Shown here: positions 42,585 to 58,470 of the stretch, in pieces
How positions within the stretch are numbered: position 1 is the first letter of the stretch
Layout: each line of letters opens with the position of its first letter
From: an uncultured bacterium
Lineage (GTDB): Bacteria > Babelota > Babeliae > Babelales > Babelaceae
Assembly: GCA_963713855.1 (NCBI GenBank)
Contig: OY970209.1
Span: 96,001-160,000, forward strand
Length of the DNA: 64,000 bases
Direction: 5' to 3'
Notes under the pieces: model-generated
What the model saw: only the letters and a program-made list of their open reading frames with translations
Database searches by the model: none
Told to the model about the DNA's origin: nothing
Made by a program: the position numbers and the translations under genes

Positions 42585-43688
42585 ATGAATTTATATAATA
42601 AAATATTTTTAGCTATTCTCTTTAGTATTATACCTTTATATGCTATTGCCCAGCATAAAAAAATAGTTACTGTTAACTATGTAAAGGGAATACATTTTGA
42701 TAGCGAAGGTCATTTTTATAGTAATGACGATGCAGTAAGATTTTTAGGGCAAGCAGCCAAAGAAGGCAAGGTTTCCAAAAATTTTAATACCATAAAAGCA
42801 GTACGAAAACTCTCTAAAGAATCTGCTGAAGGCTTGGCAAATGAGCAATTACTTTTAGTTAAATGTCAACAAGATGACTATATTATTAAAGAAATTAGAA
42901 GAGATAAAGATCCGCGTGGAGAAATTGCACGGTTAGAACACGCTCGCCAAGCTCAGAGCCTACAAGAGTATATTCATCCCAAAAATAAAGGAAAATTACA
43001 ATTTATCTTTCCGCTTAGTTATTTACGATATATCTATAATGACAAAGAACACATTTTAGTAGTGATGCCACGAGCAAAGGGTGAACGTTTGCAATCGATT
43101 ATGGAGAAGTTTAAGAATAATCCCTATGATCGAAATGTTATTGCTTTAGCATGTAGAGCATATGACGATCTTGGTAATGCAATGGGCAAATTTTACCAAC
43201 ATCAAGGTAATCTCGATCATACTATAGTTCATAATGATTTTCATCACGGTAATATTATGTATGATGCAAAGCAGCATCTAATTACGCTCGTTGATAATGA
43301 GCGAATTTCTCGATCACTTAATTCTCCTACAGATATAAGTAGTGATTTGGGTTATCTATTTGTTACTTCGCCTTTTGTTATTGAATGGGCCCATCCAGAG
43401 TTCATTAAAGGTTTAGACGTTCATCGTTGGTATAAAATTTCGTTAACAAGCTTTATACTTGGCTTTATGCGGGCTTATCCACATGAACAACGCCTTGACG
43501 TATTTAAAAAAGTGATGTCATTATTACTCAGATGGAATGTTGAAGTAAATAAAGATGCTTCACGAGAAATGCGTGGTATTATCAAAGAAATTCTTATTAA
43601 TAATGACAAAAACGATCAGAATCTTGAGCGGCAGTTATTACACGAAGGGAAGAGTCTGCAGGAAATCCGAATTTGGATACAGCGGTAA
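42585..43688 (+). CDS. Secreted protein-kinase-like/phosphotransferase protein
   Basis: Signal peptide; YIIKE, HNDFHHGN catalytic loop, LVDNE (DFG-equivalent). Confidence 0.7.
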   Translation: MNLYNKIFLAILFSIIPLYAIAQHKKIVTVNYVKGIHFDSEGHFYSNDDAVRFLGQAAKEGKVSKNFNTIKAVRKLSKESAEGLANEQLLLVKCQQDDYIIKEIRRDKDPRGEIARLEHARQAQSLQEYIHPKNKGKLQFIFPLSYLRYIYNDKEHILVVMPRAKGERLQSIMEKFKNNPYDRNVIALACRAYDDLGNAMGKFYQHQGNLDHTIVHNDFHHGNIMYDAKQHLITLVDNERISRSLNSPTDISSDLGYLFVTSPFVIEWAHPEFIKGLDVHRWYKISLTSFILGFMRAYPHEQRLDVFKKVMSLLLRWNVEVNKDASREMRGIIKEILINNDKNDQNLERQLLHEGKSLQEIRIWIQR

Positions 43689-47719: not shown

Positions 47720-47752
47720 GAGGCAGGGTTATGCACCCTGCCTCTTTTTTTT
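47720..47752 (+). terminator. Intrinsic terminator
   Basis: 10-bp stem GAGGCAGGGT/ACCCTGCCTC plus T8. Confidence 0.85.
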
Positions 47753-47754
47753 GC

Positions 47755-47910
47755 CCTTTTTTGCACGAAGTGCTTGCATGTAACGTAAGACACGTGTCGT
47801 GTCTTACGTTTATTTACGGGCAACGCCCGACTGGCTTGAGGTGCAGGAGGCACATAAGCGCGGGACCCTCGCTTTATGTTCCCGCCGCTGAACGCGTAGT
47901 TCGCTTTTTT
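47755..47910 (+). repeat. Structured element B
   Basis: Homologous to 58339-58470 (minus strand) with compensatory stem changes. Confidence 0.85.
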
Positions 47911-48009: not shown

Positions 48010-48744
48010 GTGCAATCGATGGAACTTTTTGAGCAACATACCTGGCGACCCTTTGAGGCTATGGGTTTTACGCATTCTTTTTGGTCTCTCAACAGAGAAA
48101 CGATCCTTTACACATGGGTTGTCTTAGGCATACTTACAGTATTTGCCCTTTTTGTGCGCTATTTTATACGCAGGCCTGATACGATTCCTGGAACTATTGC
48201 GGAGACGTATGTACGTTCGTTCATGCAAATGATTACGCAGACGCTTGAGTATTTTGAGTATCGTTACTGTGCTTTTATCGGATCACTTTTTACGTTCATT
48301 TTCGTATGTAACGTGCTCATTCTTTTTCCCTACATGGAAGAGCCGACCAAGGATATTAACACGACGCTGGCACTTGCGATTATTTCATTTTTATACGTAC
48401 AGAAAGAGTCTATTCGTGCTCATGGTATTGGTGGCTATATTAAGGAATTTTTTAAGCCCTTTTTCATTTTTTTCCCACTAGAAGTACTTGGGCGGCTAGC
48501 GACTGTTGTATCACTTTCATTTCGCCTTTTTGGAAACATTTTTGGCGGCTCCATTATTAGCACCATGTGGAATTACGCTATATCAGGCTCGATTTTAGCT
48601 CAGATTGCTGGTACTTTGCTTGGTATAAACATTGTAATCATGCTTTTTTTTGGTATTTTTGAAGGCTTTATCCAGGCCTTTGTATTTTCTATTTTAAGCT
48701 TAACGTACCTTTCTATGGCAGTTTCTGAGGAGCAACATGAATGA
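48010..48744 (+). CDS. atpB: F0F1 ATP synthase subunit a
   Basis: PTKDINTT, SLSFRLFGN (essential Arg), IQAFVF..L...Y; start GTG 48010 or ATG 48019. Confidence 0.93.
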   Translation: MQSMELFEQHTWRPFEAMGFTHSFWSLNRETILYTWVVLGILTVFALFVRYFIRRPDTIPGTIAETYVRSFMQMITQTLEYFEYRYCAFIGSLFTFIFVCNVLILFPYMEEPTKDINTTLALAIISFLYVQKESIRAHGIGGYIKEFFKPFFIFFPLEVLGRLATVVSLSFRLFGNIFGGSIISTMWNYAISGSILAQIAGTLLGINIVIMLFFGIFEGFIQAFVFSILSLTYLSMAVSEEQHE

Positions 48745-49675
48745 CCTAGCCCACTCATTCACAGTCGCGTCATTGGTTGTTCTGCCTGCCTTAGGTGTAG
48801 GCATTGGCCAAGGTCGCGTGAACAAGGCTGCTGTTGAAGCGATTAACGAGCAGCCTGCTGTTGAAAGCGCTATTAGGCGATTAGCACTTATTTCACTCAC
48901 CTTAAGTGAAACGGCTGTACTTTTAGGCGTCGTTATGGCGAGTCTGATTCTTCGTGGCCCTGTTTTAAAAGCACCGCTTAATCTTTCTTACATCGGAATC
49001 ATCTTTGGCTGCGCTATTCCTGGCTTTATGGTCGGTCTTGTATCTGCGGGTCCTGGTATTGCTGCTCTAAAAGCTGCAGCGCGTCAGCCGCTTTTCATTG
49101 CCAAAATTACTCAACTTTTACTGATTAGCCAGGCCGTTATTCAAACTTCGACCATTTTTGGCTTTATTATAGCGCTCGTTTTACGAAGCCAGGCTTCGAC
49201 AGGAAACTCATCTGATGGCATACGCCTATGTATGAGTGGGGTATGCTTTGGTATTGCGGTTATCGGACCACTTTTGGGCCTAGGCTTTTTTACGAAAGCG
49301 GTGTGCACTGTTGCAGGCCTTAACAGAGCTATTTACCCGCGCCTTAGAACCTTTGCTTTTATAAGCCAAGCGCTTATAGAAGCACCGGTCGTTTTTTCGC
49401 TTATCATCGCACTTGTTTTAGCTATAAGCGGATCTAAAAGCCCCTCTATTGCAAGAAACGCAGCTTTTATAGCGGCAGCATTTATTATGGGACTTACAAC
49501 GCTTGCAACAGGCCTTAATTCAAGCCGCACTGCAACAACCACCGCCAAACTTCTTTCTAAATACCCTGATCAGTACCCTACCCTATCGAAAATGAGCATG
49601 GTCACCCAAACCTTCATCGACACTTCAGCAATTTACGGGCTTCTTGATTGCCTTATCATACTCTGGGCAAGCTAA
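48737..49675 (+). CDS. atpE: ATP synthase subunit c, four fused hairpins
   Basis: Directly after atpB; GVGIGQG, EQP and RQP loops; four ~75-aa c repeats. Confidence 0.85.
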   Translation: MNDLAHSFTVASLVVLPALGVGIGQGRVNKAAVEAINEQPAVESAIRRLALISLTLSETAVLLGVVMASLILRGPVLKAPLNLSYIGIIFGCAIPGFMVGLVSAGPGIAALKAAARQPLFIAKITQLLLISQAVIQTSTIFGFIIALVLRSQASTGNSSDGIRLCMSGVCFGIAVIGPLLGLGFFTKAVCTVAGLNRAIYPRLRTFAFISQALIEAPVVFSLIIALVLAISGSKSPSIARNAAFIAAAFIMGLTTLATGLNSSRTATTTAKLLSKYPDQYPTLSKMSMVTQTFIDTSAIYGLLDCLIILWAS

Positions 49676-50067: not shown

Positions 50068-51348
50068 TTAACTATTAATCAACTGAGCATTCTCTCCCGT
50101 GCGCCGATTGTGCAGGTATCTCTTGAGAATGAACCCGGAAACCACTGCCGCAGCAACAAAAACAACGGCAGCACCGGCTCCCACACTAACACCTATAACA
50201 CAATCCATATTACAACTCTTGTTACTGTTATTTCCATTATTGCTCTTGCCACAGCCGAATACAGTGACATCATTTGAATTCTCATTAGCAGTAGCAATAT
50301 ATAAGCTGCCTGGTGAAAAGGCGATTGAATTCGCGCCGCTCGACTCAGATGGTAAATTAGTCACTTCACTTTTGCTCAATCTACCTTCATTGTCTACGTC
50401 AAACAGTGCTATTGCGCTAGAAGAACCACCAATAACAATAGCCAGGTACATACCATTTGGTGAAAATGCCGCAGCAGTGAAATAGCCGTAAAAGGAAGGT
50501 AATGCGTATGAGGTGCCCTTACTCAGGGAGCCATCTGGCTCCACACTAAATATGGTTACGTCAGCTGAAAGAATATTAGCAGTAACAAGATACGAGCCGT
50601 TGGGTGAAAAAGATACGGAATTGGGAGTTTTAGAGCCGGAGGGTAATGCATATGATTTTCCTGTGCTCAGTTTGCCGTCTGGGCCGACACCAAAAATCGT
50701 CACATCGCGCGAATTCTGATTAGCGATAGCTAAAAGGGCACTATTTGGTGAAAATGCTATCGACGTAGGAGTAGCTGTCCCCGATGGTAATGCATATGAT
50801 ATTCCACCCGTTAGAATACCGCCAATTCCTACAGTAAACACGCTAATATTAGTTGAACCGATATTAGCAGTAGCAAGATATGAGCCATTGGGCGAAAATG
50901 CTAGGGCAATAGGTTGATAAGAACCAGAAGGCAGCGAATACGAAGCAGCAACTTTCGAGACACTCCCATCTCCTACAATATTAAACACTGTTACATCATT
51001 TGATTCACTATTGGCAGTAGCGAAATACCGGCTATCGGGCGCAAATGCTGCTGCACAAGGATTTTTAGAGCCCGACGGTAAAGGAAGCGAAATAGGTGTA
51101 CTTAGCACTCCAGACTCTTCGACGTTAAACACTGTTACATTATTTGAAACAGGAGGTGGAAAACTTCCTTTGTAAATAGTTGCTGTAACAAGGTATGAGC
51201 CATCGGGTGAATATACTACTGATGAAGGTGCTGAAGACCCGACTGGTAACGCATAGGAAGTGCCGCCATTATTTAGGGAGCAATCAGCATTGAGTCTTCC
51301 GTTTGTTGCCATTACTAGTAGCGTAGCAAGTAAAGTTGTGTTGTTCAT
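50068..51348 (-). CDS. 7-bladed beta-propeller (lactonase-like repeats) surface protein with C-terminal TM anchor
   Basis: Signal peptide, seven ~46-aa SYALPSGS..P..AFSP.G.YLATAN repeats, Asn-rich linker, TM helix, basic tail. Confidence 0.85.
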   Translation of the reverse strand: MNNTTLLATLLVMATNGRLNADCSLNNGGTSYALPVGSSAPSSVVYSPDGSYLVTATIYKGSFPPPVSNNVTVFNVEESGVLSTPISLPLPSGSKNPCAAAFAPDSRYFATANSESNDVTVFNIVGDGSVSKVAASYSLPSGSYQPIALAFSPNGSYLATANIGSTNISVFTVGIGGILTGGISYALPSGTATPTSIAFSPNSALLAIANQNSRDVTIFGVGPDGKLSTGKSYALPSGSKTPNSVSFSPNGSYLVTANILSADVTIFSVEPDGSLSKGTSYALPSFYGYFTAAAFSPNGMYLAIVIGGSSSAIALFDVDNEGRLSKSEVTNLPSESSGANSIAFSPGSLYIATANENSNDVTVFGCGKSNNGNNSNKSCNMDCVIGVSVGAGAAVVFVAAAVVSGFILKRYLHNRRTGENAQLINS

Positions 51349-58338: not shown

Positions 58339-58470
58339 AAAAAAACGAACTACGCGTTCAGCGGAAGGAGGCTAGCCTCCTTCACCTCAAGCAAGTATGG
58401 CGTTGCCAGTAGATAAATTTAAGACACGGCACGTGTCTTAAATTGCATGCAGCACTTCGTGCAAAAAAGG
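58339..58470 (-). repeat. Structured element C
   Basis: Homologous to 47755-47910. Confidence 0.85.

Follow-up and report, generated by a model that had tools for sequence, protein, structure and literature searches.

In rotary ATPases, the number of ions moved per ATP depends on how many ion sites the rotor ring carries. An Na+ site takes Q/E32 and E65 from one hairpin and V63, S66 and Y70 from the adjacent one (PMC3692424). In the literature covered here, the F-type hybrid rotor that has been characterised belongs to Acetobacterium woodii, whose ring contains nine single c subunits and one c1 (PMC9171764). The c1 subunit (atpE1; PDB 4BEM chain J) has two hairpins and one ion site, and both c genes are located in one operon behind atpB. 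This rotor has been explained as an adaptation to making ATP at low energy; the enzyme synthesises ATP at a low driving force with a threshold of 90 mV (PMC9171764). Clostridium aceticum has a similar c1/c2 pair, and in the c1 of both species an exchange of E for Q removes a site (PMC7911925). A. woodii is also the mixed-ring case of a 2026 preprint on the evolution of rotary ATPases (bioRxiv 10.64898/2026.10.01.756066). Tandem hairpins are further known from the c/K subunits of A/V-type enzymes, with two hairpins in NtpK of Enterococcus hirae, three in Methanocaldococcus jannaschii and 13 in Methanopyrus kandleri, in which ligands are often lost (PMC2359735).

Fused c proteins are easy to overlook, for example by a length filter, and a large survey of c-rings dropped sequences over 250 amino acids (bioRxiv 10.1101/2024.02.27.582367). 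A literature search restricted to main texts returned no paper on four-hairpin F-type c subunits or on the c subunits of Dependentiae, and no paper describing the Desulfobacterota-type c subunits with four to six hairpins. A 2026 paper mentions, in the part considered here, two to four atpE copies in relatives of Desulfatiglans, citing Brandt & Muller 2015. The sections covered of the main text of the 2026 rotary ATPase preprint contain neither Dependentiae nor Babel- or TM6, and those of a 2025 paper on Babelota contain no occurrence of ATP or ATPase. The phylum-wide fused c described below is therefore apparently undescribed.

A four-hairpin c subunit behind atpB

The window, i.e., the whole stretch of 64,000 nucleotides that was analysed, contains just two ATP synthase genes, atpB and a fused c gene. 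The features of this locus are as follows:

47720-47754, plus strand: terminator-like hairpin with a T run, found by pattern scan only, located after the upstream Mur-ligase-like gene
48019-48744, plus strand: atpB, subunit a (Pfam ATP-synt_A, E 1.7e-40), the only copy in the genome
48737-49675, plus strand: four-hairpin (8-helix) F-type c subunit of 312 amino acids, atpE1-like gene (Pfam, AlphaFold2, Foldseek, PDB sequence match)
48737-48955, plus strand: hairpin 1, in which Q25 and E58 form the Q32/E65-type half of an Na+ site; its loop reads N-x-Q-P, and the Y70-type residue is gone
48977-49201, plus strand: hairpin 2, with Q136, S at the Q32 position, an R-Q-P loop and T-S-x-x-F after the site
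49214-49426, plus strand: hairpin 3, with E215 followed by A/T-P-x-x-F, and L or Q at the Q32 position
49448-49669, plus strand: hairpin 4, with D295 and the S/T66 plus Y70 half of an Na+ site (T296, S297, Y300), directed toward the next subunit

The frame of the fused c gene is free of stops over its 312 codons, its start overlaps the atpB stop by 8 nt, and the sequence GAGGAG is located four bases 5' of its ATG. With four hairpins it departs from the form of single-hairpin c subunits, which comprise about 75-85 amino acids. Four stretches of the protein match Pfam ATP-synt_C (PF00137; E 2.5e-23, 82.5 bits, cut-off 24), and in the genome-wide scan the four fused hairpins were found with E 1e-10, 4e-4, 1.9e-4 and 4.3e-5, respectively. 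The AlphaFold2 model, which was calculated from a 35-row alignment and has a mean pLDDT of 92.9, consists of four helical hairpins spanning about residues 2-73, 81-155, 160-230 and 238-311. The best matches in NCBIfam and among PDB sequences are F-type, including TIGR01260 (45.2, cut-off 43.95), and the top PDB match, by fold as well as by sequence (E 9.6e-24), is A. woodii c1 (4bem_J). The residues equivalent to Glu65 are E58 (48908-10), Q136 (49142-44), E215 (49379-81) and D295 (49619-21), and Q25 is part of the GIGQG motif of hairpin 1. A sequence-only reading of the window had thus correctly recognised the four fused hairpins, the E/Q/E/D residues at their sites and the Na+-type half-signature of the first repeat, composed of GIGQG and ET. 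In the ESM Atlas, only clusters of the c family were obtained, with few taxon labels, mostly Thermodesulfobacteriota.

For atpB, an alternative start exists at an upstream TTG (47947). The stator Arg of subunit a is invariant in 116/116 relatives. The terminator-like hairpin at 47720-47754 suggests that atpB and the fused c gene form a transcription unit of their own; promoter-like sites occur at chance-level frequency. The gene preceding the hairpin matches Pfam Mur_ligase under the cut-off and is presumably FolC-like. Between it and atpB, a 97-base stretch (47755-47851) carries a palindromic stem of 13 pairs and recurs once in the genome, reversed, at about 58375-58470 with 87% identity. The stability of the hairpin upstream of atpB is not significant (z -1.65). 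Two other open reading frames of the window were noted by eye, a 426-aa repeat protein that appears beta-propeller-like with a C-terminal membrane anchor (50068-51348, minus strand) and an ORF of 367 amino acids that resembles kinases and starts in a signal-like manner (42585-43688).

The remaining ATP synthase genes of the host genome

The host genome (G000), that of a parasitic bacterium of the phylum Dependentiae, is a single contig of 1.52 Mb with 91% completeness. Apart from the window, its ATP synthase genes are spread over three places, in agreement with the earlier suggestion that the rest of the operon lies elsewhere. A single-hairpin c (atpE) of 85 amino acids (G000:C1:547264-547521) represents the fifth c hairpin of the genome and heads the cluster atpE-F'-F-H-A (c-b'-b-delta-alpha) at about 547-550 kb, the beta-epsilon pair is located around 294-296 kb, and gamma around 634 kb. 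The b' gene matches under the cut-off, and the b gene, an ORF without a subunit-b match, was named by its position. In this assembly, frame breaks divide atpA (G000:C1:548921-550414) into two ORFs; the breaks are probably sequence errors.

The genome contains one a, one alpha, one beta and one gamma subunit, and delta is present; a third match of the alpha/beta family is, judging from its sequence features, presumably Rho. Since a, alpha, beta and gamma are each present once, the two c genes, which are about 400 kb apart, use one stator and one F1. The fused c accordingly has a complete set of F-type partners in its genome (a, b, delta, alpha, beta, gamma and epsilon), and V-type subunit I (PF01496) is absent from the matches in this 91% complete genome. 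The features of an N-ATPase were not found either, the enzyme being the sole copy, with scattered genes and with delta. An AtpI-like ORF of about 95 amino acids (e.g., L009:1957-2262) precedes atpB in 69/164 Dependentiae loci; in 2/6 tested cases it matches Pfam ATP-synt_I, under the cut-off. In the host genome, a profile of the relatives' ORFs found no such gene, the best match having E 0.006 in an unrelated long frame.

Distribution across Dependentiae

The profile of the fused c gave one match each in 201/201 Dependentiae genomes from 20 families. A scan of genome contigs with the single fused protein found none, an alignment-based scan found 47 loci, and a search of sequencing runs listed none. 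The titles of the related loci refer to Dependentiae, Babeliales or TM6, including Vermiphilus pyriformis. From the 201 fused-gene loci, 121 were taken (30 best-scoring, 51 lowest-scoring and 40 by family), which gave, after removal of two truncated ones, a set of 119 proteins that is non-random and over-represents the clade with E at site 2. In this set atpB is located directly 5' of the fused gene in 116/119 loci, the other three being at contig ends. Subunit a was found in 199/201 genomes, with a single match in 198.

The single c accompanies the fused form almost throughout. The Pfam c model has five matches in 182 genomes, six in one, four in 17 and two in one; a single c was inferred from the match count in the 183 genomes with five or more, and 66 sequences were read directly. 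Of the 18 genomes with fewer than five matches, 15 have a single c, so that it is seen or inferred in 198/201 genomes. The three misses (G199, G183 and G187) are assembly gaps: the contig of G199 starts 383 bases upstream of delta, and in G183 and G187 (86% complete) a clear delta is missing as well. Among the 201 genomes, none without single c was found except in such gaps. The conserved fused c therefore co-occurs with a single c and a single stator, and no separate single c was found in the fused-gene loci L007-L174 themselves. Each of the four hairpin positions forms a group of its own across the phylum (support 98-100), and therefore the four-hairpin form appears to predate the radiation of the Dependentiae. 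Divergence is faster in hairpin 1 (mean identity 36%) than in the single c (56%).

Residues at the ion sites

Half-sites were scored by the rule that two adjacent hairpins contribute to every site. The glutamate on hairpin 2 of E. hirae NtpK has its partner threonine on hairpin 1 (PMC2359735), and therefore each glutamate was taken to pair with the preceding hairpin. For the Na+ motif, the criteria Q/E32, E65, S/T66, S/T67 and Y70 were used (bioRxiv 10.64898/2026.10.01.756066; PMC3692424).

In the 119 proteins, the four sites read EQED in 55, EEEE in 34, EQEE in 14, EEED in 4 and EMED in 3 cases, in addition to nine singletons. Site 1 is E in 117/119, site 2 is Q in 72, E in 42, M in 3, and G and V in one each, site 3 is E in 115/119, and site 4 is D in 63 and E in 52; four carboxylates are kept in 39/119 proteins. 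The E/Q/E/D pattern, which the sequence-only reading had offered for comparison with relatives, is thus not universal, with E at site 2 in 42/119, and appears to be specific to one clade rather than phylum-wide. In the tree of subunit a, which comprises 60 genomes with no more than 5 from any family and 8 outgroup rows, the genomes with E and those with Q at site 2 form the two sides of a basal split (99/92 and 100/98), which indicates that the difference is one switch at the base of the phylum. Since E is present at site 2 across a whole basal clade, the lost carboxylate cannot be the reason for which the fusion is kept.

The hairpins differ clearly in the halves of the Na+ site that they retain. 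Hairpin 1 has Q/E32 together with E65 in 93/119 proteins and Y70 in 0/119, with Q in its loop in 116/119. In 24/119 proteins (genomes of family f3, e.g., L055 and L077), the Q32 position of hairpin 1 is occupied by E instead of Q, which resembles the two-carboxylate site of Fusobacterium nucleatum. Hairpin 2 has P in its loop in 118/119 proteins and, in most relatives, T-P-x-x-F after the site. In hairpin 3, P67 is found in 112/119 and F70 in 114/119, and the glutamate half is intact in 44/119. Hairpin 4 carries Y70 in 116/119 and S/T66 plus Y70 in 102/119, and it is the only hairpin on which the S/T-plus-Y half is intact. The chain therefore ends in two complementary halves, the glutamate half on hairpin 1 and the S/T-plus-Y half on hairpin 4, and an internal site with a full set of Na+ ligands occurs in 0/119 proteins, including the four-carboxylate clade.

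Direction of the enzyme and coupling ion

The host genome encodes ATP/ADP translocases, and three genes of this family are arranged in tandem at G000:C1:915360-919525. Complex I subunit H and COX1 gave no match in the genome, which is 91% complete, and matches to Rnf/NQR occurred in 0/101 genomes. Subunit epsilon (G000:C1:294374-294628; L345:178-429, minus strand) has 84 amino acids and consists of the beta-sandwich only, and its open frames comprise 79-123 amino acids in all 100 genomes of the phylum that gave a match, which suggests a phylum-wide loss of the C-terminal regulatory helices. These helices are linked to the inhibition of ATP hydrolysis (PMC5990651). Running of the enzyme in reverse, as a proton pump, has already been suggested for these organisms (PMC4776705; PMC6561590), in passages in which the c subunit is not mentioned. 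The pump mode that had been proposed earlier for an energy parasite is thus supported by the translocases, by the lack of matches to complex I subunit H, COX1 and Rnf/NQR, and by the short epsilon, and ATP-driven pumping is probably the direction of the enzyme, although this is deduced from gene content.

The single c subunits (n=66) contain P28 in 64, Q32 in 62, E65 in 66, S/T66 in 61 and Y70 in 58 sequences. They carry the Na+ motif in 39/66 cases under strict and 52/66 under relaxed criteria, and the copy of the host genome has F70. Na+ coupling is, on these residues, likely but not firm. The membrane pyrophosphatase of the genome has Ala at the K+-dependence position, which we take to mark the K+-dependent enzymes, a group that includes Na+ pumps; this gives weak support to Na+ coupling.

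Comparison with multi-hairpin subunits and origin

Like A. woodii c1, the fused c belongs to an F-type enzyme, follows atpB and is accompanied by a single c. The ends are also alike: Q/E but not Y is retained in the first hairpin, and both S/T and Y are retained in the last; the motifs of A. woodii c1 are E-T-S-x-x-F in the first and Q-T-T-x-x-Y in the last hairpin. However, c1 has two hairpins and one ion site, whereas the subunit described here has four hairpins and three carboxylates, and its last hairpin keeps D/E instead of Q. In addition, the c genes of Dependentiae are located in separate loci instead of one operon, and the host is an intracellular parasite without Rnf, in which the enzyme probably pumps. 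By analogy, the fused c may work like the A. woodii hybrid rotor, yet it falls outside the two-hairpin, one-operon type.

A search with one multi-hairpin c from the profile search yielded 2451 proteins with E up to 1e-30; among the 120 matches listed, the named ones are mostly from Desulfobacterales or other deltaproteobacteria. Among 558 metagenome loci of this sulfate-reducer type, the best 80 (L260-L339) have four hairpins in 73, five in 4 and six in 3 cases. The multi-hairpin c is located behind atpB in 78 and in front of a single c in 70 of these 80, the exceptions all being cut by contig ends, and the sites read EQQQ in 52/80, mostly leaving one carboxylate. These Desulfobacterota-type subunits resemble the fused c of Dependentiae in their location after atpB, in the polarity of their ends and in the internal motif Q-T-P-x-x-F, which resembles hairpin 2 of the Q clade. 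They differ in that the number of hairpins varies, most internal sites are Q and the single c is adjacent. The Dependentiae layout appears, from the gene order, to be the sulfate-reducer-type order broken between the two c genes. In a hairpin tree with all 66 columns, hairpin 2 joins deltaproteobacterial internal hairpins, and removal of the five site columns brings all Dependentiae hairpins into one group (SH-aLRT 95), the alignment being short and the tree weak in both cases. A putative origin from an A. woodii-like c1 and two single c (E,Q + E + E) fits the 66-column tree but fails once the site columns are removed.

Like the A/V-type c/K subunits, the fused c consists of tandem hairpins with lost ligands (PMC2359735), and pairs of its hairpins superpose on NtpK with a TM of 0.84 by target length. 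Unlike them, it is part of an F-type enzyme, for which a single-hairpin c has been retained as well. Two further kinds of long c proteins were observed. P0122 (968 aa, cluster of 12) is a 13-hairpin c protein with E at all sites and many W residues where G is expected, which suggests that TGA is read as Gly, presumably in a Gracilibacteria-type code; it is possibly an F-type one-chain rotor like that of Methanopyrus kandleri. P0156 (1139 aa) and P0197 are very long multi-hairpin A/V-type c proteins annotated as 'hypothetical' in Asgard archaea (Promethearchaeota, Hodarchaeota, Thorarchaeota).

A probable hybrid rotor and its alternatives

The reading that we consider probable is a hybrid rotor of one fused and several single c subunits, forming an ATP-driven, probably Na+-translocating pump. 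In its favour are the one stator and F1 available to both c genes, the co-occurrence of these genes across the phylum, the location of the fused gene behind atpB, the half-site polarity common to the fused c and to A. woodii c1 with its mixed ring, the sulfate-reducer-type loci in which a multi-hairpin c of like polarity stands between atpB and a single c, and the AtpI-like ORF in front of atpB in 69/164 loci. One (or two) of the four-hairpin chains would sit in the c-ring together with several single c. Hairpin 1 would complete a normal Na+ site with the preceding subunit and hairpin 4 with the following subunit, and the three internal sites would be silent or non-canonical, site 2 of the Q clade being without a carboxylate. 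Such a ring would carry fewer Na+ than hairpins and translocate fewer ions per ATP. The Na+ F-type rings cited in one source all have 11 hairpins (PMC3692424); an assumed ring of this size with one fused and seven single subunits would have 8 canonical sites, or 10 with the internal E and D, as opposed to 11, corresponding to 2.7-3.3 instead of 3.7 ions per ATP. The enzyme would spend host-derived ATP, pump ions and energise the membrane. For this rotor we infer co-assembly, stoichiometry, ring size, ion and direction. A prediction of the complex of two fused chains and three single c subunits reached a score of 0.28, the mark being 0.32, and counts neither for nor against it. Earlier, a ring solely of fused chains with at most three quarters of the hairpins active had been envisaged, which is doubtful in view of the single c and of internal ligand sets that are complete in 0/119 proteins; because single-hairpin atpE exists phylum-wide, hairpin numbers other than multiples of four are possible for the ring. 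Of the alternative that had been named, a canonical atpE elsewhere next to a poorly conserved fused gene, the former part was borne out but the latter was not.

Several observations weigh against the hybrid rotor or parts of it. The half-site polarity is equally suited to a ring of fused chains only, in which hairpin 4 pairs with the next hairpin 1, and the c genes are about 400 kb apart and not co-transcribed, so that the control of their ratio is unexplained. The frame breaks in atpA and the lack of an AtpI-like match in this genome also belong on this side. As regards Na+, the strict motif is found in 39/66 single c, the host copy has F70, and the two papers on the direction assume protons in the parts considered here (PMC4776705; PMC6561590). 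Against site deletion speaks that E215 and D/E295 are each kept in 115/119 proteins; the 39/119 with four carboxylates imply that it is not the whole reason for the fusion. According to another reading, which we consider unlikely, the fused chain is in the ring for structure and not for gearing, as a pre-curved seed that sets the ring size, for coupling assembly to subunit a or as a leak-stopping parking position, while the internal carboxylates carry ions and the ratio is little changed. The retention of the fusion in the four-carboxylate clade (EEEE 34, EEED 4 of 119), the fixed role implied by each hairpin position being its own lineage phylum-wide (support 98-100) and the translational coupling to atpB would agree with this. 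However, the internal sites of that clade still lack the Y70-type ligand (0/119 complete), and one clade exchanged E for Q at site 2, as in c1 of A. woodii and C. aceticum. It is also unlikely that two interchangeable rotors exist, one of three fused chains for steep pumping, with 12 hairpins in total, roughly 3 canonical Na+ sites and at most 9 carboxylates, and one of single c for another life stage. The complementary ends could close on themselves, the c genes are in separate transcription units that could be regulated apart, and atpB is coupled to the fused gene and not to the single c; but A. woodii c1, the one relative that has been characterised, functions as part of a mixed ring, the sulfate-reducer-type loci keep both c genes adjacent in one operon, and the one-carboxylate forms with 4, 5 or 6 hairpins that are common there (EQQQ 52/80) would make pure rings nearly ion-blind. 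Moreover, genomes without single c occur only where the assembly has gaps.

A variant in which the junction sites carry Na+ and the internal carboxylates (E215, D/E295 and, clade-wise, the E of site 2) carry H+ is rather doubtful. It is very improbable that the fused c serves the rotor of another ATPase, of V/A type or N type: rotor subunits with several hairpins are usual in A/V enzymes (PMC2359735), and V-type c chains are among the Foldseek matches, but no V-type subunit I was found in the 91% complete genome, the neighbouring gene encodes an F-type subunit a and the best sequence matches are F-type, and with delta present, no second copy and a gene order unlike atpDCQRBEFAG (PMC2881411) an N-type enzyme does not fit either. 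Gene content and F-type matches thus largely refute this possibility. A misassembled repeat or a drifting redundant paralogue could be suspected from the frame breaks in atpA and from the faster divergence of hairpin 1 (36% as opposed to 56% for single c), yet the gene occurs once per genome in 201/201 genomes of 20 families, its four hairpins are distinct and position-specific, and an internal stop was found in 1/150 among the matches listed; conservation refutes this explanation, the chance of which is negligible.

Implications for rotor evolution

The four-hairpin version occurs throughout a phylum whose members are parasites that import ATP and whose enzyme probably pumps, whereas the two-hairpin subunit of A. 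woodii is explained as an adaptation to ATP synthesis. Since the fusion is also kept with all four carboxylates, site deletion as the sole purpose of such fusions is questioned. If the mixed-ion variant were true, a single rotor would translocate Na+ and H+ in a set proportion, and through the basal split of site 2 into E and Q the phylum would possess two natural gear settings. The basal E/Q switch itself provides a ready-made pair of enzymes for studying how the number of ion sites sets the gearing of a rotary ATPase.
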